Shown: in pieces, positions 1 through 9,836 of the stretch
Layout: every line of letters begins with the position of its first letter
Position numbering within the stretch: position 1 is the stretch's first letter
From: a virus
Taxonomy: Duplodnaviria > Heunggongvirae > Uroviricota > Caudoviricetes
Length of the DNA stretch: 38,348 bases
Direction: 5' to 3' (one strand)
Virus record (IMG/VR): IMGVR_UViG_2609459797_000003
Program-made: the position numbers and the translations under genes
Notes under the pieces: model-generated
Database searches by the model: none
Told to the model about the DNA's origin: nothing
The model's input: only the letters and a program-made list of their open reading frames with translations

Positions 1-1254
1 ATGCTGGAACAAATGGGCATTGCCGCGAAGCAAGCCTCGTATAAATTAGCGCAACTCTCCAGCCGCGAAAAAAATCGCGTGCTGGAAAAAATCGCCGATG
101 AACTGGAAGCACAAAGCGAAATCATCCTCAACGCTAACGCCCAGGATGTTGCTGACGCGCGAGCCAATGGCCTTAGCGAAGCGATGCTTGACCGTCTGGC
201 ACTGACGCCCGCACGGCTGAAAGGCATTGCCGACGATGTACGTCAGGTGTGCAACCTCGCCGATCCGGTGGGGCAGGTAATCGATGGCGGCGTACTGGAC
301 AGCGGCCTGCGTCTTGAGCGTCGTCGCGTACCGCTGGGGGTTATTGGCGTGATTTATGAAGCGCGCCCGAACGTGACGGTTGATGTCGCTTCGCTGTGCC
401 TGAAAACCGGTAATGCGGTGATCCTGCGCGGTGGCAAAGAAACGTGTCGCACTAACGCTGCAACGGTGGCGGTGATTCAGGACGCCCTGAAATCCTGCGG
501 CTTACCGGCGGGTGCCGTGCAGGCGATTGATAATCCTGACCGTGCGCTGGTCAGTGAAATGCTGCGTATGGATAAATACATCGACATGCTGATCCCGCGT
601 GGTGGCGCTGGTTTGCATAAACTGTGCCGTGAACAGTCGACAATCCCGGTGATCACAGGTGGTATAGGCGTATGCCATATTTACGTTGATGAAAGTGTAG
701 AGATCGCTGAAGCATTAAAAGTGATCGTCAACGCGAAAACTCAGCGTCCGAGCACATGTAATACGGTTGAAACGTTGCTGGTGAATAAAAACATCGCCGA
801 TAGCTTCCTGCCCGCATTAAGCAAACAAATGGCGGAAAGCGGCGTGACATTACACGCAGATGCAGCTGCACTGGCGCAGTTGCAGGCAGGCCCTGCGAAG
901 GTGGTTGCTGTTAAAGCCGAAGAGTATGACGATGAGTTTCTGTCATTAGATTTGAACGTCAAAATCGTCAGCGATCTTGACGATGCCATCGCCCATATTC
1001 GTGAACACGGCACACAACACTCCGATGCGATCCTGACCCGCGATATGCGCAACGCCCAGCGTTTTGTTAACGAAGTGGATTCGTCCGCTGTTTACGTTAA
1101 CGCCTCTACGCGTTTTACCGACGGCGGCCAGTTTGGTCTGGGTGCGGAAGTGGCGGTAAGCACACAAAAACTCCACGCGCGTGGCCCAATGGGGCTGGAA
1201 GCACTGACCACTTACAAGTGGATCGGCATTGGTGATTACACCATTCGTGCGTAA
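1..1254 (+). CDS. proA: gamma-glutamyl phosphate reductase (complete, 417 aa)
   Basis: Full-length ORF whose translation I recognise as E. coli ProA; stop TAA at 1252-1254. Confidence 0.95.
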
Positions 1255-1368
1255 ATAAAACCGGGTGATGCAAAAGTAGCCATTTGATTCACAAGGCCAT
1301 TGACGCATCGCCCGGTTAGTTTTAACCTTGTCCACCGTGATTCACGTTCGTGAACATGTCCTTTCAGG

Positions 1369-1444
1369 GCCGATATAGCTCAGTTGGTAGAGCAGCGCAT
1401 TCGTAATGCGAAGGTCGTAGGTTCGACTCCTATTATCGGCACCA
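1369..1444 (+). tRNA. thrW: tRNA-Thr (anticodon CGU)
   Basis: 76 nt 'GCCGATATAGCTCAGTTGGTAGAGCAGCGCATTCGTAATGCG...GGTTCGACTCCTATTATCGGCACCA': D-loop, T-loop GGTTCGA, CCA end, anticodon CGT in 'TTCGTAATG'. Confidence 0.95.
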
Positions 1445-1458
1445 TTTAAATCAATAAG

Positions 1459-2622
1459 TTACACATCATTAGTACCTTCCTTATTTTTTGACTGGGACAA
1501 ATTTGGGACCGATGGGTTCAGGATCGAGTCTATTTGCCGTGCGTGTTCGGTAAGGTGATTAGGTGCAAGGTGAGCATATCGACGAACCATTTCGATAGAC
1601 TCCCAGCCTCCCATTTCCTGTAACACTGACAACGGGACTCCGGCTTGAACCAGCCAACTTGCCCAGGTGTGTCTCAAGTCGTGAAATCTGAAATCATCAA
1701 TACCAGCCCGTCTCAGCGCCGCTTTCCAGGCTGTGTTTGCGTCATACCGCATCTTCCTTACTGTTGGCGCTTTCGTTCCGTCTGGTTTGGTACAGCTTTC
1801 CTTGTACACAAATACCCAACGGTGATGATTCCCGATTTGTTTTTTCAAAACGCGACATGCAGTATCATTCAGCGCAACGCCGATTGCGCGGTTTGATTTA
1901 CTCTCTTCTGGGTTTATCCATGCCACCCGGCGCTGCATATCTATTTGTTGCCATTCAAGGTTGATGATGTTCGAGCGTCTTAAGCCTGTTGCCAGTGCAA
2001 ATTCAACAACAGACTTTAATGGCTCCGGACATTCATCAATCAGCCTTTGTGCTTCATGGGGCTCCAGCCAGCGGATCCGTTTATTCTTTGGTTGAGGCAC
2101 TTTAATAATTGGTGCCTTATCCAGCATTTTCCATTCACGCTCTGCGGCTCTTAGTAGGGCCTTTATAAATGAAAGATGCGTAGCCTTCGTTGCAACGGAC
2201 GCTGGTTTTGGCGTGTATTCTGGAACAGGTTTCCCTTTTTTTCTGCATGCTTCTGCCCTGAGTTTCCAGTTTTCCTCATGACGCCGGTTCGTCATTTTCT
2301 GCATTGCTGAATAAATTTTTGATTCAGTAATGTCTCTTAGTTGCATTCCTGCGAAATGTTGAAGCCAGAATCCGATCCGGCTTTTGTCATCGTCCAGTGA
2401 TTTTTTATGTGCTTTCTCTTCAAGCCACCTGACACACGCTTCCTCGAACGTTATATCAGGTATTTCACCAAGTTTGCTGACCCGCCATGCTTCAGCCTTT
2501 AGCTTGTCATGGAGTTCTGTCGCCTGCCTTTTGTCCTTTGTTCCAAGAGACTGTTTAAATCTTTTACCGTTCGGCAATGTGAAACTGGCGTACCATATTT
2601 CACCTCTGCGGAAGAGTGACAT
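1459..2622 (-). CDS. phage tyrosine integrase
   Basis: 387 aa; N-terminus '[14 protein letters not shown]...' typical of prophage integrases; C-terminal '[39 protein letters not shown]' carries the R..H..R..Y catalytic signature; stop lies 14 bp from the tRNA 3' end. Confidence 0.9.
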
Positions 2623-2852
2623 TTTCTTTCCTCTGTTATGCCATCACCCGCGCTCACCTGGACAGTATGCAGCGGAGACTGAAGCGCCGCAATGCAGGCT
2701 TGTCGTGTTGTGAGGTAAGGAGATTTATTCTTAGTGGGATCTTTGCGTGTTGCCTGAAGACGCCCTGTGCGTATCCAGTTAATGGCAGTCGGTCTGGATA
2801 TCTTGAGAAAATGACAGGCCTCATCGAGTGTGAGGCTGTATGGCTCCATTAT
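2499..2852 (-). CDS. excisionase-like HTH DNA-binding protein (Xis/AlpA-like)
   Basis: Internal start '[31 protein letters not shown]' is a classic excisionase-type HTH; position directly upstream of int. Its 3' end overlaps the int start by ~120 nt in another frame, so the true C-terminus is uncertain. Confidence 0.6.
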
Positions 2853-3154
2853 TTCACCTCTTGCTGTGACATTGTTGAAAAATGGATACCAGCTCGTTGC
2901 TGCCAGACGATCCAACCGAGAGTCATATCCCATGCCATGTATTCGTTATCGCCGTTTTTTGCTCTCCGACGATCTACTAAGTCACCGAAACGCTTTTCCA
3001 TGAATAATTCATAAGCTTCGCGTTCATCTGGTTCTACTTCCAGAGATAGGAGTGCGATTTCATAAGCACGGCGCTCAATATCGTCTCGCACGTCAAGGCT
3101 GCTGATACGCTCTTTAATTTCTTTAATCAGTTCTTTGTCGGTAAAAGTGGTCAT
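2849..3154 (-). CDS. hypothetical early-left phage protein (YfdT-like position)
   Basis: 101 aa ORF, ATGA overlap with xis start, co-oriented in early-left operon; acidic small protein, no recognised domain. Confidence 0.5.
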   Translation of the reverse strand: MTTFTDKELIKEIKERISSLDVRDDIERRAYEIALLSLEVEPDEREAYELFMEKRFGDLVDRRRAKNGDNEYMAWDMTLGWIVWQQRAGIHFSTMSQQEVK

Positions 3155-3516
3155 TATGCTCCAGCCTCCGGTGCTTTTGGCATTACTGCCCAGTGAGTGA
3201 TATTGACGTTTTCAAGGTCCCCGACCTGAAATGTCCACTGCCATTCTCCGGTTTCTTTTTGTCCCCAGGTGTACCAGAGAGAACGCCAGCCAATTAGCCA
3301 GCCTTCTCCGTTAGCATCGAATAACAAAACACTTTCATTTGCTGGTGGCAGTTCAGTTGACACTGGTATTACTTTGTTTTCCTGTGCTGCACATTTAGCT
3401 TCAAGCGCATCGAATTTACGCACCAGGTATTCAGCATCTGTTTCATTTACTTTCAGATCTCGCGGTACACATCTCCCACGAAGAAACCCTTCCATTTCGA
3501 AAACATTCATGCGCAT
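3154..3516 (-). CDS. hypothetical phage protein (Trp-rich C-terminus, DUF551-like)
   Basis: 120 aa ORF tightly packed in operon; 'GWLIGWRSLWYTWGQKETGEWQW' Trp-rich tail seen in prophage DUF551-type proteins. Confidence 0.5.
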   Translation of the reverse strand: MRMNVFEMEGFLRGRCVPRDLKVNETDAEYLVRKFDALEAKCAAQENKVIPVSTELPPANESVLLFDANGEGWLIGWRSLWYTWGQKETGEWQWTFQVGDLENVNITHWAVMPKAPEAGA

Positions 3517-4043
3517 TTGCGTAACTCCGATAACTCGTTAAAGCGTTCCATAAACATCCCGTAGGCATGGCCCGGTGCCAGTGGAATCACGTTGAACATT
3601 TCTGTTGCCGGGATACCTTCCAGTACAGGCCAGAAAGAGCCATCATCAAGCCCGAGATCGCGGCGTTCGGTTGCCAGCATGATGAGATCGGCATATTTCA
3701 CGGGCGTACTCATAACCGGGGGTAACCCGTATTTCTCACGGATTACGGCGTCTATTTTTTCTTCCATTTGTTTATAGTCAGGAAGAAGGCGTTTCAGTGG
3801 TGCGGGAATGTCCTGGCAATACGCTTCTGTTGCATCATGCATTAACGCTTCAAAAGCAAATTCCTGCGGCACCAGCTGGCTGCAAAGAACCGCATGTTGG
3901 GCGACGCTGTAGAAGTGCGAAAGATGACCGGCAAAGCGACAGATATTTGAAAGGGAAACCGCGATATCGTTAATATCGATGTCGTCTTTATTTATCCTGT
4001 CATAATAAAAATGCTTCCCGGAAAAAGTTTTAATAAATGACAT
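3507..4043 (-). CDS. HD-domain phosphohydrolase, 5'-deoxynucleotidase-like (YfdR/YfbR family)
   Basis: Start chosen at 'MSFIKTF' (GGAG Shine-Dalgarno 6 nt upstream on the minus strand). Motifs 'SVAQHA' and 'HDATEAY' match the H...HD metal-binding signature of HD-domain nucleotidases. Confidence 0.7.
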   Translation of the reverse strand: MSFIKTFSGKHFYYDRINKDDIDINDIAVSLSNICRFAGHLSHFYSVAQHAVLCSQLVPQEFAFEALMHDATEAYCQDIPAPLKRLLPDYKQMEEKIDAVIREKYGLPPVMSTPVKYADLIMLATERRDLGLDDGSFWPVLEGIPATEMFNVIPLAPGHAYGMFMERFNELSELRKCA

Positions 4044-4170
4044 TTTGTTCTCCACGTATATGCGCTGCACCGCGCTGAATTCTGGTAAAAAGAATCCCTC
4101 ACCATCCGGCGATTATTGAGTAAATTACGTTTCCATAAATGCCCCCGCAGGGGCATTTGCAGTAATGAAA

Positions 4171-4995
4171 TCAGGCGGTGAAAGTACCAATAAAGGTTTC
4201 TACTTTGCTGTCCTTGAATTTCTCAACAAGCAGATCACGAAATTCGTTAGCCATTTCTTCCTGCACCGCCTCCAGCTGAATAATGCGCAGAACCAGTACA
4301 GGACGATCGCCAGTGATAATACTGAGGCGTAATTTAAACGGACGTTCTTTCAGACCTTCAAACGGAACGCATTTAAATTCAAATGCCACTGGCATAATGT
4401 CTTTGGTCTTCGCTTCGACAGACTCCATCAGGGAGCGTTTGCCGCTGAAGTCATTATCTTCAAAATCAGCGGTATGGTTTGCTTCAATCGTGATTTTACG
4501 GACAGCCGCAGCCGCTTTTGTTGCCTGAATAGCGTCACCATTAGCATCAAAGCCCACAAGATAGTCGGCCCAGTCTTCAATCCATTCTGCCAGTGACTTC
4601 TGGGAGTTACGCTCGCCGTTAACAGTCAACAGAGCAGAGAACGGTGCTGTCTTTTTCAGTTTGAGTGTGGCGGTGTTATCTGCGTGACCTGGTTCATCAA
4701 TAGTACCCAGGTTAAGCACACTGACGGCACGCATATTATCAGCATCGATAAAGCAGCGGGTGCCTTCATCTGCAAGATCTTTAGAATAACGGGTAAAGTC
4801 ATCGATGCTGGCAGTGGAAAGCGCACCACGGAAACGGAAGCGATTTAAATTAAATTTTTCCAGATCATGAATGCGGAAATTCTCAGGCAATGCCACAGCA
4901 TCGGCACCAATCTTACTGATAATTTCATTAACACTCTGAGCAGAAATAAGGGCATGGATTTGATTAATTGCGGTTGCGTCTAAGTTCTGAGACAT
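4171..4995 (-). CDS. DUF2303-family phage protein (YfdQ-like)
   Basis: 274 aa; size and position next to the HD nucleotidase match the yfdQ-yfdR pair of KplE1-type prophages (recollection, not searched). Confidence 0.6.
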
Positions 4996-5060
4996 AATAA
5001 GTCCTCACTATATAAAGATATTCAGTGATGAGATAAATAATCAGTTAATTAAAAACGATA

Positions 5061-5423
5061 TTAACGACCTGCTGCGCGGAGTTTTCCGTCAGGTTCACCG
5101 GCAAGAGTCAGTAACTGTCCCTGGTCTTCCTGCAGAATAGTCAGGCGACCACCGCGATTGACATACATCGGCGTTTCGGTGGTGTCTTCTTCGGAAATTT
5201 TCCCGCGGTTAGTCGGGCGAACATATGAGAGTTTGTGTTTGATTTTCACACGGTTCTCATCAAATGGTTCGATTTCCAGGTTGAGTGAGACCTTACCTTT
5301 GGTTTTCGTGTTCATCACACCGGAAGCGACTTCACTGAGAACTGCGCCGATTTTGGTTTCAAATACGCCGCCGTCCAGCTCCCCGATAAATGCCTGCACA
5401 TCAGTACTGCGTTCGCTAGCCAT
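5061..5423 (-). CDS. hypothetical phage protein (YfdP-like)
   Basis: Start chosen at 'MASERSTDVQAF' because of GAGGAG Shine-Dalgarno upstream ('gaggagcagcaaaATG' on the minus strand); the longer ORF in the track (to 5741) runs into a structured non-coding region. Confidence 0.55.
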   Translation of the reverse strand: MASERSTDVQAFIGELDGGVFETKIGAVLSEVASGVMNTKTKGKVSLNLEIEPFDENRVKIKHKLSYVRPTNRGKISEEDTTETPMYVNRGGRLTILQEDQGQLLTLAGEPDGKLRAAGR

Positions 5424-5860
5424 TTTGCTGCTCCTCATCATATCGACCCTGCAAGGCCGATTAGTTTCTCCACAAAACAGAGAAGAACACCTGCGGTGGC
5501 AGCCGCCCGGATGGATTGGGTTATGAGCCCGTCGTCCGGTGATGCTCTTCTCTGTTTTGTAAAAAGGACGGTACCAGCCGGAAGCAAGGGTACAAGCTGG
5601 TACCGCCAGGACTACACACAGCATAAAGTTGTGGTGCCGGGTGCCTCCCGGTGCCTGGCGAAGGTTGCACACCAGGCGGGTGGGTATCCACAGAAGGTCG
5701 ACTGTCAGCCTCAACCTTAACCCGCGTGCGCTGAGCCGCATTCACCACAACGCTAAGGATTCTCTTTGGTTGAAAATACTTAGCTGTTATGTGCCTGTCT
5801 TTTCACCACTTCAGGCTCGGTGGTATCCTTTTAAGCCCGTATACATAAAAGGAAAATCAA

Positions 5861-6106
5861 ATGACTTTTGATGAAAAAGAACTTGATAATGCAATTAATA
5901 AAATCATCGTAACGTCGCTCTTTTCCTGTCTCAGCGACACTCAGCAGAAACAGTTCTACGAATCGGCTTTCAACATGATCGAGCGTTGTTGTTTCTGCGA
6001 TGCCGACGAGTTACCTGAAAAAATCAGGAAACAGTTGGCTGATGCTCTTCGAGTGCGACTTTCTGACCAATTTTCTGAAATGTGCTCTCCGAATTTGGAC
6101 AAATAG
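5861..6106 (+). CDS. hypothetical 81-aa protein transcribed rightward, opposite to the early-left operon
   Basis: ATG preceded by 'aaaaggaaaatcaa' (AAGGA Shine-Dalgarno, ~7 nt spacing); Cys-rich 'ERCCFCDADELPEKIRKQLADALRVRL'. Confidence 0.45.
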   Translation: MTFDEKELDNAINKIIVTSLFSCLSDTQQKQFYESAFNMIERCCFCDADELPEKIRKQLADALRVRLSDQFSEMCSPNLDK

Positions 6107-6320
6107 AAAAAGGCCATTTCCATTCAGGGTCTGATGGAAATACTTCAGCCTGTTCCAAAGCACGGCGTAAAGAGAACACAACTCCAGCCATAATCTGATG
6201 TTTCCCATTGGTCCAGCTATCGCCGCTCTGATCTACAGGGGCGGCTATGTCGTATGACCAAACGACTTCACAGTTATTGTTTAAAATCTGGACTTTCATT
6301 TCATACACCTGCTTTAACAT
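6024..6320 (-). CDS. hypothetical first gene of early-left operon (uncertain)
   Basis: 98 aa ORF downstream of the putative OL/PL region; 3' end overlaps the convergent + strand gene by ~80 nt and contains a hairpin, so at least part may be non-coding. Confidence 0.3.
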   Translation of the reverse strand: MLKQVYEMKVQILNNNCEVVWSYDIAAPVDQSGDSWTNGKHQIMAGVVFSLRRALEQAEVFPSDPEWKWPFSICPNSESTFQKIGQKVALEEHQPTVS

Positions 6321-6416
6321 GAGTGCCTAGTGGCACAACATGACTCAACGAATCATCCTGGACTTCATATGCCCCAGGCGGCTACTTCGTGGGCGTCCTG
6401 CCTGTTCGTTGTTTCG

Positions 6417-6454
6417 CTTGGGTACATTATGTATCTCAAAGGTACATTGTCAAG
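6417..6454. promoter_or_regulatory. putative OL operator region (repeated GGTACA half-sites)
   Basis: 'cttgGGTACAttatgtatctcaaagGTACAttgtcaag' shares the GTACA half-site with the palindrome between repressor and cro. Confidence 0.4.
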
Positions 6455-6455
6455 T

Positions 6456-6479
6456 ATAAAAAAACCTGCCGAAGCAGGT
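6456..6479 (-). terminator. rho-independent terminator downstream of repressor gene
   Basis: Stem 'acctgc'/'gcaggt' with 'cgaa' tetraloop; the A-run 6456-6463 on + gives a U-tract on the minus-strand transcript immediately after the stem; 14 bp past the repressor stop. Confidence 0.55.
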
Positions 6480-6492
6480 TCATAAACATTGA

Positions 6493-7167
6493 TTAGGCTT
6501 TGATTTTGTATCTTCTTGGTTTTCCTGAGAAAATCACTGTACCAATTATAGAGCAATTACCGTTGATCTTAATGTAAGGCTCAGGCCAGTTTGGGTTTAA
6601 CGCTTTGAGATAACGCTGTGTCCCATCTTCTATCAACCTTTTGAAGGTGGTTTCACCTGTATCGTGCATCAATGCAATAACGTCGTCACCGTGGCAGGCA
6701 GGTACTTCAGGATCGACAAAAATCATGTCTCCCGGGCGGTACTCATCAATCATTGAATCACCTATCACCCGCAAGATATAAGTCATTTCCCCACAGGGTA
6801 CAGGGCAGGGATACGTTTCTGCTGTGCTCAAATCAACCTCAGAATATCCAACTTCTTTCCATGCTCCGGCCTGTACCCATGATATGACAGGGACTAATGT
6901 GATTTGTTTATTAGTGATTGAAACATCAGGTTTTTTTGTGATGTTCGTTGTCTGGTGTTCTTGATCGAGCCATCCGACAGGCAGGTCGAAACATTTTTCG
7001 ATGTGTCGTGCCATGCTGTCACCGATATTTTTAGTAGCACCATCTCCCATAAACCTGCTGGTCTGGGTTGGCTCGCGATCAATCATAGTGGCAAAGGAAG
7101 AATTCCCGCCAACACCATCTCTCAGTTTTCTGGCGTTAGACCGCCGGATGTCATGGATTGTTTTCAT
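6493..7167 (-). CDS. CI-like prophage repressor (HTH + S24 LexA-type peptidase domain)
   Basis: 224 aa; C-terminal 'ILRVIGDSMIDEYRPGDMIFVDPE...ALMHDTGETTFKRL' is the Ser/Lys autopeptidase signature of CI/LexA; divergent from a Cro-like gene. Confidence 0.85.
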   Translation of the reverse strand: MKTIHDIRRSNARKLRDGVGGNSSFATMIDREPTQTSRFMGDGATKNIGDSMARHIEKCFDLPVGWLDQEHQTTNITKKPDVSITNKQITLVPVISWVQAGAWKEVGYSEVDLSTAETYPCPVPCGEMTYILRVIGDSMIDEYRPGDMIFVDPEVPACHGDDVIALMHDTGETTFKRLIEDGTQRYLKALNPNWPEPYIKINGNCSIIGTVIFSGKPRRYKIKA

Positions 7168-7182
7168 AACGAAATTAAAACC

Positions 7183-7252
7183 CTTGTACCGTTAAGGTAC
7201 AAGTATCTTGAAGGTTCATTTCAATCATGTAATATGTACACCGGAGGTACAT
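7183..7252. promoter_or_regulatory. OR/PR region: operator palindrome plus sigma70-like promoter for cro
   Basis: Palindrome 'CTTGTACCgttaaGGTACAAG' (7183-7203, 8-bp arms); candidate -35 TTGAAG (7208-7213), 16-nt spacer, -10 TAATAT (7230-7235); second 'GTACAccggagGTACA' overlapping the GGAGG ribosome-binding site. Confidence 0.55.
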
Positions 7253-7257
7253 ATTGT

Positions 7258-7458
7258 ATGAAAGCGTATTGGGACTCTTTAACCAAAGAACAGCAGGGCG
7301 AGTTGGCCGGAAAAGTTGGCTCAACACCTGGCTACTTACGGCTGGTTTTCAATGGCTATAAAAAAGCCAGTTTTGTGCTGGCTAAAAAACTTGAGCAATG
7401 CACGTCAGGTGCAATTACGAAATCTGACTTAAGACCGGATATCTATCCGAAAGATTAG
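7258..7458 (+). CDS. Cro-like HTH regulator (YdaS-like)
   Basis: 66 aa from ATG with GGAGGT Shine-Dalgarno; 'LAGKVGSTPGYLRLVFNG' HTH and C-terminal 'LRPD' motif; divergent from repressor. Confidence 0.75.
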   Translation: MKAYWDSLTKEQQGELAGKVGSTPGYLRLVFNGYKKASFVLAKKLEQCTSGAITKSDLRPDIYPKD

Positions 7459-7489
7459 CAGAACACTTTCAATTTTTAACCACAGAACG

Positions 7490-8059
7490 ATGAGGCTAAT
7501 CGTGGGTAAGCATCACTGGAAAATAGAAAAACAGCCTGAGTGGTACGTGAAAGCTGTCAGAAAAACTATCGCGGCGTTGCCGGGTGGTTACGCTGAAGCG
7601 GCTGACTGGCTCGATGTAACAGAAAACGCTTTATTCAACCGCCTTCGTGCAGATGGCGATCAGATTTTCCCGCTGGGATGGGCAATGGTTTTACAGCGTG
7701 CTGGTGGCACTCACTTCATTGCTGATGCTGTGGCGCAGTCTGCAAATGGCGTCTTTGTGTCTCTTCCTGACGTCGAGGATGTGGACAACGCCGATATTAA
7801 CCAGCGTCTGCTGGAAGTCATTGAACAGATCGGCAGTTATTCAAAACAGATTCGTTCAGCAATCGAAGACGGTGTAGTGGAACCGCATGAGAAGACAGCA
7901 ATTAACGACGAGCTGTATCTCTCAATTTCGAAGCTGCAGGAGCATGCAGCACTTGTCTACAAAATTTTTTGCATTTCAGAAAGTAATGACGCCCGCGAGT
8001 GTGCAGCTCCGGGCGTCGTGGCGTCGATTGCTTCTGGTTGTGGAGAAACTAACGCATGA
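7490..8059 (+). CDS. early regulatory protein, YdaT-like/CII-like (tentative)
   Basis: 189 aa directly after the Cro-like gene, the position CII/YdaT-type proteins occupy in lambdoid prophages; family assignment from memory only. Confidence 0.5.
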
Positions 8060-8394
8060 ACAGTTTAACAACACACTACCGTCGCTCGCAACTGATTGCG
8101 CTTCCTGTACCGGGTGGAAAAGCGAAGGTGGAATATTGCTATGCAGTGAATGTACCAGGTGACAGGGAAATTGTAACCCACAGCTTTGCAGAGTGGGCTG
8201 TGGGTGATTTCAACCGGCAGAAGGAGACAGTCCTTTGCGACAAGTTAACCGCTGGTTCAAAGATCACTACGGAGTGCCCGTCAGAGTCATTCGTTGGGAG
8301 CCGGAAACACAACGAGTTATCTACCTCCGCGAAGGCTATGAGCATGAGTGCTTCAGCCCGCTCGAACAGTTTCGTCGTAAATTCAGGGAAATAG
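8056..8394 (+). CDS. hypothetical protein; C-terminal half of uncertain frame
   Basis: N-terminal ~55 aa read as a plausible protein; the Ser-rich low-complexity tail reads like out-of-frame sequence, while an alternative frame (8235..8414) reads as protein. Confidence 0.35.
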
Positions 8395-8403
8395 AGGTCG
8401 GTC

Positions 8404-9345
8404 ATGAGCACTAAATTAACCGGCTATGTATGGGATGGTTGCGCTGCATCAGGCATGAAATTATCCAGCGTGGCAATTATGGCCCGCCTGGCTGATTTCA
8501 GTAATGACGAAGGTGTGTGCTGGCCATCAATTGAAACTATTGCCCGTCAGATTGGCGCGGGGATGAGTACCGTCAGGACGGCTATCGCACGGCTGGAAGC
8601 AGAAGGCTGGTTAACGCGTAAGGCGCGTCGCCAGGGTAACCGCAATGCGTCGAATGTTTATCAGCTTAACGTTGCGAAGCTTCAGGCAGCGGCATTTTCT
8701 CAACTGTCAGATTCTGACCCGTCAAAATCTGACGCATCAAAATCTGACCCGTCAAAATTTGATGCGTCGAAATCTGGCAAAAAAGCGGGTTTTCACCCGT
8801 CAGAATCTGGCGGGGATCCGTCAGTAAAATCAAAACATGATCCGTCAGATAAAAAACCTTCTCGTCCGGACGCTTCGCAACCGGACACGCAGACGGATGA
8901 ACAGGATTTTTTAACTCGCCATCCTGATGCGGTTGTATTCAGCCCTAAAAAGCGCCAGTGGGGAACGCAGGATGATTTGACCTGCGCACAGTGGCTCTGG
9001 AAAAAAATCATCGCCCTGTACGAGCAAGCCGCCGAATGTGACGGCGAGGTGGTTCGTCCCAAAGAACCGAACTGGACAGCCTGGGCAAACGAAATTCGCC
9101 TGATGTGTGTGCAGGATGGTCGTACTCACAAACAAATCTGCGAGATGTACAGCCGCGTCAGCCGCGATCCGTTCTGGTGCCGTAACGTGCTCAGCCCGTC
9201 GAAGTTGCGGGAAAAATGGGATGAGCTTTCCCTGCGCTTATCACCGTCCGTCAGCACGTACACCGAAAAACGCGAAGACCCGTACTTCAAATCCAGTTAC
9301 GACAACGTGGACTACAGCCAGATCCCGGCAGGATTCAGGGGGTGA
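8404..9345 (+). CDS. replication initiator (O-like, winged-helix N-domain) with internal iterons
   Basis: N-terminal 'LTGYVWDGCAASGMKLSSVAIMARLADFSNDEGVCWPSIETIARQIGAGMSTVRTAIARLEAEGWL' is the prophage replication-protein HTH; internal 15-bp tandem repeats encode 'SDPSKSDASKSDPSKFDASKS'. Confidence 0.6.
   Translation: MSTKLTGYVWDGCAASGMKLSSVAIMARLADFSNDEGVCWPSIETIARQIGAGMSTVRTAIARLEAEGWLTRKARRQGNRNASNVYQLNVAKLQAAAFSQLSDSDPSKSDASKSDPSKFDASKSGKKAGFHPSESGGDPSVKSKHDPSDKKPSRPDASQPDTQTDEQDFLTRHPDAVVFSPKKRQWGTQDDLTCAQWLWKKIIALYEQAAECDGEVVRPKEPNWTAWANEIRLMCVQDGRTHKQICEMYSRVSRDPFWCRNVLSPSKLREKWDELSLRLSPSVSTYTEKREDPYFKSSYDNVDYSQIPAGFRG
8707..8850. repeat. iteron-like tandem 15-bp repeats (putative ori) inside replication gene
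   Basis: Five consecutive in-frame units 'TCAgATtCTGACCCG / TCAAAATCTGACgCa / TCAAAATCTGACCCG / TCAAAATtTGAtgCG / TCgAAATCTGgCaaa' at 8707-8781 plus degenerate copies to ~8850. Confidence 0.6.
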
Positions 9346-9347
9346 TC

Positions 9348-9836
9348 ATGAGTCTTTTGAATGAAGTTCAGAAATTCATTGAAGCCCATCCGGGATGTAC
9401 TTCCGGAGACATTGCGGATGCTTTTGCAGGTTACTCACGGCAGCGCGTTCTGCAGTCAGCAAGCAAGTTACGTCAGAGTGGGCGTGTGGCTCACCGTTGT
9501 GAAGGAGATACACGCAGACATTTCCCGCGCCTGACTGAGAGAGCGCAGGAACCGGAACCACAACCAGTTCGAGAAACCAGACCTGTGCGCAATTTCTATG
9601 TCGGCACTAACGATCCCCGTGTGATTTTGTGCCTGACCCGCCAGGCGGAAGAACTGGAGTCCAGGGGCTTATACCGTCGTGCTGCAACCGTGTGGATGGC
9701 GGCATTCCGTGAAAGCCACTCCCAGCCAGAACGAAACAATTTTCTGGCGCGTCGTGAGCGGTGCTTACGGAAAAGCAGCAAGCGCGCTGCATCGGGTGAA
9801 GAGTGGTATCTGTCAGGGAATTACGTGGGGGCTTAA
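9348..9836 (+). CDS. PerC-like regulator domain protein (YfdN-like, tentative)
   Basis: C-terminal 'LTRQAEELESRGLYRRAATVWMAAF' resembles the PerC/Pch family core motif; ATG 2 nt after the upstream stop. Confidence 0.45.
   Translation: MSLLNEVQKFIEAHPGCTSGDIADAFAGYSRQRVLQSASKLRQSGRVAHRCEGDTRRHFPRLTERAQEPEPQPVRETRPVRNFYVGTNDPRVILCLTRQAEELESRGLYRRAATVWMAAFRESHSQPERNNFLARRERCLRKSSKRAASGEEWYLSGNYVGA

Follow-up and report, generated by a model that had tools for sequence, protein, structure and literature searches.

Probable nesting of a DUF4222 gene within ymfM, ahead of the replication gene of an e14-like prophage

The IMG/VR virus record IMGVR_UViG_2609459797_000003, a stretch of 38,348 nucleotides which is referred to as the window, contains an early region which is that of an e14-like lambdoid prophage of Escherichia coli. 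Here two open reading frames (ORFs) overlap directly upstream of the replication gene: ORF A, corresponding to ymfM, and ORF B, which encodes a protein of the DUF4222 (RgdR) family. The two frames very likely form a conserved nested pair, made up of ymfM with a read-through tail and of an independently translated DUF4222 gene. Both ORFs are kept intact among homologues, the start of ORF B and its Shine-Dalgarno sequence are conserved, the two modules are separable, and ORF A stops at the ribosome-binding site of the replication gene. The features of the pair, all on the plus strand, are listed below, with the evidence for each in parentheses; dN/dS is the ratio of nonsynonymous to synonymous substitution rates.

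8056..8394, plus strand: ORF A (ymfM), 112 residues, ATG start (97% identity to b1148; phrog_1170, E=3.8e-70; 92 homologues)
8056..8234, plus strand: conserved N-terminal domain of ORF A, about 59 residues (dN/dS, substitutions, stand-alone homologues, phrog_20047)
8205..8207, plus strand: TGA closing frame B upstream of the ORF B start (translation)
8221..8226, plus strand: AAGGAG, Shine-Dalgarno sequence of ORF B (sequence; 8-nt spacer to the TTG)
8235..8414, plus strand: ORF B, TTG-initiated, 59-residue DUF4222 (RgdR-family) protein (PF13973, E=8.6e-19)
8235..8394, plus strand: dual-coding overlap, 160 nt, in which frame A encodes a Ser-rich, predicted-disordered tail (residues 60-112)
8392..8394, plus strand: TAG stop of ORF A, adjoining the Shine-Dalgarno sequence of the replication gene (GAGG, 8394-8397)

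The DUF4222 gene and its start

A preliminary inspection of the letters (the sequence-only reading) had called attention to the ORF at 8056-8394 and to a protein-like alternative frame at 8235-8414, and had offered three explanations for the latter: an indel or pseudogene, a programmed frameshift, or a separate small gene initiated at a TTG. Translation confirmed the coordinates of both frames and the peptide of frame B. The protein-like look of this peptide is not due to chance, as it matches the Pfam family DUF4222 (PF13973) with 67.3 bits and E=8.6e-19, the cut-off of the family being 27 bits; the match covers positions 3-52 of the 53 in the profile and residues 2-53 of the protein. The product is identical to RefSeq WP_001250269.1, for which the Prokaryotic Genome Annotation Pipeline (PGAP) reports a coding sequence (CDS) at exactly 8235-8414, and does not differ from the K-12 sequence in the same frame (100% identity). 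It is 59 residues long, homologues ranging between 55 and 70, and is located between the CII-like and the replication genes, the prophage early-region context which is typical of these proteins. At least 139 clusters named DUF4222 are found across Enterobacterales. The AlphaFold2 model, with a predicted local distance difference test score (pLDDT) of 82.6, is a small beta-barrel; a sequence search of the PDB found no relatives of either the ORF A or the ORF B protein.

The TTG start codon, at 8235-8237, follows the AAGGAG motif with a spacer of 8 nt; the sequence-only reading had recognized both elements, giving however a spacer of 9 nt. Neither ATG nor GTG is found between the TGA which closes frame B upstream (8205-8207) and the TTG. 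An ATG, GTG or TTG is present at the codon homologous to 8235 in 12 diverged loci, where it is preceded by a GGAGG-type motif, and in three homologous loci (L091, L095 and L099) stops in frame B are located 1-5 codons upstream of the start. Considering the PGAP CDS at the same coordinates, the conserved start and Shine-Dalgarno sequence and the purifying selection on frame B reported below, the separate TTG-initiated gene is the only one of the three initial explanations which holds. A small hairpin is predicted at 8219-8237, where the Shine-Dalgarno sequence of ORF B (GAAGGA) pairs with UCCUUU at the TTG start.

In a programmed -1 frameshift, ribosomes translating ymfM would slip into frame B, to give a fusion of the N-terminal domain with DUF4222. 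Lambda G/GT and dnaX are programmed -1 frameshifts of this kind, and share with the present locus the -1 relation of the frames and a Shine-Dalgarno-like element upstream, AAGGAG being placed here as in dnaX. In-frame fusions generated by 1-nt indels do exist in nature, although rarely, so a fusion is tolerated; the ymfM N-terminal domain is joined to DUF4222 in this way in P0059, P0065, P0030 and P0052, P0065 having 14 members. Because most fused variants derive from read-archive assemblies, some may result from sequencing errors. Since the TGA at 8205-8207 closes frame B upstream, a shift from A to B would be confined to 8208-~8240. The frame A codons at 8208-8240 are TTC AAC CGG CAG AAG GAG ACA GTC CTT TGC GAC, and, read codon by codon, 8208-~8240 contains no slippery heptamer of the X XXY YYZ type. 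Moreover, unlike in G/GT and dnaX, an independent start is conserved at the same codon in homologues, and the frame upstream of it is closed by the stops found in L091, L095 and L099; Morganella-type loci encode two separate proteins from an ATGA junction, and no Rfam frameshift element was detected by scanning positions 7000-9500. A programmed frameshift is, on these grounds, highly improbable.

The probability is even lower, and practically negligible, for an indel, a sequencing error or a pseudogene, in which a frameshift mutation would have broken a single ancestral ORF. The abrupt change in composition at about codon 60 of ORF A is what such an event could produce, but complete genomes of E. 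coli, about 2,000 in number and with 95-100% identity, share the same layout, as do functional phages, such as mEp390 and PhiR49_1, and lineages in which protein identity is only 40-60%. None of the 30 unique close variants, nor any of the diverged lineages examined, has lost either frame.

ymfM, its tail and its end point

ORF A is a real gene, of which only the first half resembles a normal protein. Its product is identical in 109/112 residues (97%) to the K-12 b1148 product, described as 'cell division inhibitor YmfM', and the neighbours, ymfK, ymfT and ymfL, match those of b1148, so that both sequence and synteny identify it as a YmfM orthologue. Scanning IMG/VR with ORF A detected near-identical copies only, and diversity was obtained from exact-protein look-ups and from a scan anchored on DUF4222. 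In the 92 homologue clusters of ORF A, an N-terminal region of about 60 residues is well conserved, and the tail is poorly conserved. Over positions 8056-8234, dN/dS in frame A is 0.34 for the alpha type and 0.36 for the beta type, against 0.92 and 1.28 in the other frames; in the same part of the 30 unique close variants, 12/13 substitutions are silent in frame A. The N-terminal domain exists in several diverged types, all of which match PHROGs 20047 and 1170. The second part of ORF A is rich in Ser, as the sequence-only reading had described, with 12/53 residues in the tail (60-112) versus 3/59 in the N-terminal part. The tail is predicted to be disordered, with AlphaFold pLDDT values of about 30 for residues 68-112; for residues 1-66 they are 54-73, too low for a fold search with the N-terminal domain model.

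Stand-alone genes of 57-78 residues, composed of the N-terminal domain, are found in the Morganella/Proteus types, in Entomohabitans and in Atlantibacter. In Morganella/Proteus-type phages the stop of this ORF overlaps the start of DUF4222 as ATGA. In Entomohabitans (L008) and Atlantibacter (L009), at positions 2501-2740, the domain is a 75-78-residue ORF which abuts the replication gene, without a DUF4222 gene, and because of these cases the two modules are regarded as separable. Residue 61 of YmfM is a near-invariant Cys, or a Trp in the beta type, and its codon is formed by the NTG of the B start together with the next base; when this base is A, a TGA codon results and the ORF A-type frame ends there. 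An A is never the first base of the second B codon in the Enterobacteriaceae form, where the junction TGA becomes TGC, TGT or TGG.

It could also be argued that only ORF B is a gene, ymfM being spurious and 8056-8234 an untranslated leader. This is implicit in the PGAP annotation, which leaves 8060-8234 blank, and ORF A finds no match in either Pfam or NCBIfam. Such a view is very unlikely when confronted with the selection acting on the N-terminal domain (dN/dS 0.34, substitutions biased towards third positions, 12/13 of them silent), with its homologues standing alone beside DUF4222 or replication genes, with the ATGA junction which connects ymfL to ORF A, and with the matches of ORF A to PHROG families 20047 and 1170.

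At about position 8235, selection shifts from frame A to frame B. In the overlap, dN/dS is 0.23 in frame B versus 0.94 in frame A; ORF B is thus under purifying selection in its own frame, and no amino-acid conservation of the ORF A product is seen in this part. Three nucleotides differ between the window and K-12 within the overlap, and all three differences are silent in B and change A. The same pattern is found among the 30 unique close variants, in which 25/34 substitutions in the overlap are silent in B and change A, the reverse being true for 3/34. As ORF B is in the -1 frame relative to ORF A, position 3 of its codons corresponds to position 2 of the A codons, where most of the changes in the overlap fall. 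The sequence-only reading had considered the opposite outcome, a tail under purifying selection with an unconstrained alternative frame; what is observed is a frame A open from end to end, in which only B is conserved. That ORF A itself is real, with a conserved N-terminal domain, and that its read-through is conserved had not been foreseen.

The extent to which frame A is kept open was evaluated by considering that its stops may only derive from B codons of the type xTA or xTG, followed by a codon starting with A or G. Given the B protein and the local codon usage, the probability of frame A being open across B is between 0.008 and 0.086 per lineage. Frame A is full length in 41/41 unique read-through loci of the Enterobacteriaceae type and in 71/71 unique loci anchored on the beta-type N-terminal domain, with no ORF ending in the middle of B in either set. 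For 16 lineages, defined by a synonymous difference (pS) of at least 0.45 between them, the sum of log10 P is -25.6, or -6.8 by a conservative within-gene permutation, which preserves the codon composition of each gene. By this measure frame A is open across B beyond chance.

Codon choice within B points in the same direction. At the sites at risk, i.e. Val, Leu or Ile codons located before a codon starting with A, purine-ending codons are 0/122, and variation between T and C is present; at harmless sites of the same genes, ATA is used in 23/64 cases and GTG or GTA in 10/47 (Fisher p=2e-5 for the avoidance of purines at risk codons, lineage representatives). In the Morganella/Proteus clade, which is without read-through, GTG is found at 22/42 such Val sites and the +1 frame contains 1-4 stops.

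The ends of ORF A are bimodal: some coincide with the ATGA junction and the others with the replication gene start, and none falls in between. The distance from the A stop to the replication ATG is exactly 10 nt in the window and in most loci, and ranges from +4 to -10 nt in the others; this spacing holds across at least three unrelated families of replication genes, while the position of the B stop varies from -3 to -43. The A stop is therefore placed within a few nucleotides of the replication gene start, a proximity compatible with translational coupling. Truncated ymfM clusters were evaluated as counter-examples and discarded, since they correspond to contig ends, adaptor or insertion sequence junctions, deletions and frameshifts; nonsense mutations in the tail were not found among them.

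These data bear on a further alternative, in which both genes are real but the read-through is neutral: the junction stop would have been lost once and the open state inherited, without selection on the tail or on its end. The free drift of the tail amino-acid sequence fits this explanation, as do the population-level tests, which are not significant, and the class IV DUF4222 genes, which lack an upstream N-terminal domain and are also open in +1, probably because of recent shared ancestry. It is harder to reconcile with 16 lineages (pS >= 0.45) which are all open, at a joint chance of at most 10^-6.8, with ORF ends which are strictly bimodal, and with codons at risk sites, which vary between T and C and never to purines. 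The composition of the tail is a further difficulty, as it is depleted of hydrophobic residues, with hydrophobicity below that of synonymous recodings in 16/16 lineages. Neutral read-through is accordingly rated as unlikely, though less so than the alternatives discussed above.

Several points weigh against the interpretation as a nested pair with a maintained read-through. Both joint probabilities overstate independence, since the lineages are related, and the signal from tail composition may be due in part to C-ending codons being mildly preferred. Tests for stop avoidance in close populations gave p=0.14 and 0.29, and are underpowered. No RNA structure sequestering the ribosome-binding site of the replication gene is predicted (z=+0.92); as this gene also possesses a Shine-Dalgarno sequence of its own, there is no evident need for coupling. 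The hairpin predicted at 8219-8237 would make initiation of B dependent on ribosomes translating A, but is not significant when compared to shuffled sequences (z=-0.96), so that neither of the two starts offers structural support for coupling by unmasking. Finally, ymfM and ymfL have no entry in one small-ORF ribosome-profiling supplement, e14 being repressed in normal growth.

A separate observation concerns DUF4222 loci of a different kind. Those in which the +1 frame is open for more than 1,400 nt (L143, L181 and others) were considered as possible A-like fusions and rejected, as no N-terminal domain is present upstream. In the Rha-associated loci L143, L145, L147, L179, L181 and L182 (positions ~1300-3130) the +1 frame is open for 1.3-1.8 kb, and runs antisense through two minus-strand genes into the Rha-like gene; although unusually long, it was judged to be a coincidence of frames.

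Proposed mechanism and comparable systems

The proposed mechanism starts from a two-gene module, N-terminal-domain gene plus RgdR-family gene, which in many temperate phages of enterobacteria is located between the CII-like and the replication genes. Ancestrally, three genes would have been linked by ATGA junctions, and in the Enterobacteriaceae form the stop at the first junction would have been lost; because this stop is missing, ymfM reads on in the +1 frame of B. Ribosomes coming from the ymfM start would then cross the DUF4222 gene out of frame, adding a 53-residue tail, rich in Ser and Thr, disordered and fast-drifting, and would terminate on the Shine-Dalgarno sequence of the replication gene. 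The DUF4222 protein would be made from its own Shine-Dalgarno sequence and from a start which is often not ATG, and this 59-residue, predicted beta-barrel protein is the product preserved by selection in the overlap. We infer that translational coupling to the replication gene or control of the product ratio is what maintains the read-through, and/or that it provides a useful, harmless polar tail; ribosomes crossing the B start would also modulate initiation of B.

One comparison is with the ATGA-coupled junctions of the Morganella/Proteus form, where the order of the modules and their relative frame are the same, and the ymfL-to-A junction of the window is still ATGA; the difference is that the Enterobacteriaceae form has no junction stop and A runs on. 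Because this sister clade retains the ancestral ATGA junction, the pair is useful for studying how overlapping genes originate and are maintained. The Rz/Rz1 genes of phage lambda and the D/E genes of phiX174 are nested, overprinted phage gene pairs. As in these, a phage gene is embedded out of frame within another, in the same mRNA and with a separate start, and in L097, L099 and L100 the whole of B is contained in A. The Rz and Rz1 products, however, are both conserved and cooperate, whereas in the ORF A tail only the openness of the frame, the position of its end and a polar composition appear to be kept. The locus offers a clear case, in nature, of an overprinted extension which seems to retain openness, end point and polarity and not its sequence.

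For ORF B the relevant comparison is with the one DUF4222 protein which has been characterised, RgdR (ECs1581) of E. coli O157:H7 (Flockhart et al. 2012, PMC3378721). This prophage regulator is an activator of LEE1 and type III secretion and a repressor of motility, and its binding to DNA is non-specific (PMC3378721; PMC10877973); its RGD tripeptide, at residues 20-22, matters for activation of the type III secretion system (PMC3378721). The gene was located in the Sakai genome, within prophage Sp7 (L185, 23304-23603), and the DUF4222 match covers residues 17-68 of the protein (E=2e-23). Over 49 residues RgdR and ORF B share 41% identity, and both proteins are prophage-borne, small, basic and encoded directly upstream of a replication gene, which is a primase in Sp7. 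RgdR is longer, having 99 residues with N- and C-terminal extensions against the 59 of ORF B, and is found in a P4-like element with no overlap to the upstream ORF, as ECs_1580 ends before RgdR. In place of its RGD, ORF B has V4-N5-R6, when the alignment is extended by eye, and no RGD tripeptide occurs anywhere in ORF B. By analogy with RgdR, the product of ORF B is probably a small protein with a regulatory or cofactor role. As RgdR also adjoins a primase gene, the position directly upstream of the replication gene may be a general feature of the family, which gains here a second, very widespread context, next to the replication genes of prophages.

The SfiC question, annotation and genomic context

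The nested arrangement has consequences for the identity of SfiC, a question which has been around for 35 years. By using the ymfM 'open reading frame' cloned in pBAD24 and a ymfM deletion, Ansari et al. concluded that ymfM is SfiC, and treated it as a single product of 112 residues (bioRxiv 10.1101/2020.11.19.390815). The cloned fragment includes the Shine-Dalgarno sequence and the TTG of ORF B, along with DUF4222 residues 1-53, i.e. the whole Pfam domain, and the deletion removes ORF A and ORF B together. Because the clone carries, and the deletion removes, both genes, the division-block phenotype, filamentous growth on expression through loss of FtsZ rings, is not assignable to one frame. 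Three single-base changes, each altering one frame and silent in the other, were designed and checked in silico, and would separate ymfM from the DUF4222 gene: 8235 T>C turns the TTG of B into CTG (CTT to CTC in A), 8241 C>T replaces Gln3 of B by a stop (GAC to GAT in A), and 8246 T>A introduces a stop at codon 64 of A without altering B. It is conceivable, if rather doubtful, that the SOS-inducible SfiC block is due wholly or partly to the DUF4222 protein, or to both products, and that the tail is a selected device which brings ribosomes past the DUF4222 start to that of the replication gene and so sets the ratio of three proteins; if true, this would be an overprinted extension kept for its end point and not for the sequence it encodes.

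The annotation of the locus varies with the source. In the curated MG1655 record of K-12 ymfM is annotated and frame B has no feature; similarly, the GenBank records of phages PhiR49_1, vB_EcoM-720R4 and mEp390 report A and not B. RefSeq PGAP annotates only the 59-residue DUF4222 gene, so that a conserved coding stretch of about 175 nt (8060-8234) is left blank. Conflicting annotations were seen at window positions 8056-8414 and in L001, L002, L003, L104, L266 and L267. As each annotation misses a real gene, pangenome and orthologue tables treat one locus as two unrelated genes. The suggestion, in the sequence-only reading, of an unannotated overlapping gene is therefore valid for the K-12 reference and for the GenBank phage records, and not for RefSeq, where the ORF B gene itself is already annotated. 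In the literature searched, no description was found of its conserved nesting with ymfM, or of the resulting ambiguity.

The region has matches, for the most part with 95-100% identity, in 2,671 records of complete E. coli genomes. The order of the early region is ymfK (cI-like), ymfT (cro-like), ymfL (CII-like), ORF A with ORF B, and an O-like replication gene, the genes flanking the pair being the following.

7490..8059, plus strand: ymfL, CII-like early regulator (Pfam Phage_CP76, E=1.3e-13; RefSeq name ymfL)
8404..9345, plus strand: replication initiator, O-like, HTH_36 (Pfam HTH_36, E=4.3e-11)

The TGA stop of ymfL (8057-8059) overlaps the ATG of ORF A, forming an ATGA junction, and the ATG of the replication gene is placed within the last codons of ORF B. 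Phage records name the latter gene 'DNA replication protein O'. Within it, positions 8713-8776 contain 4.3 copies of a 15-nt tandem repeat, TCTGACCCGTCAAAA, encoding a 'SDPSKSDASKSDPSK' stretch; these copies probably represent iterons belonging to a lambda-type origin located inside the initiator gene. Rfam, promoter and terminator scans of 7000-9500 gave nothing relevant, the sole match being a chance microRNA hit on the iteron-like repeats.

Over window positions 8000-8460 identity to E. coli O128:H27 strain 90-9281 is complete (100%), and the 112-residue product of ORF A is 100% identical, by tblastn, to its counterpart in Shigella flexneri SFBU0723. The replication gene of the window is intact, with 313 codons for amino acids, unlike that of K-12 e14, and for this reason the window may be a less decayed relative of e14.

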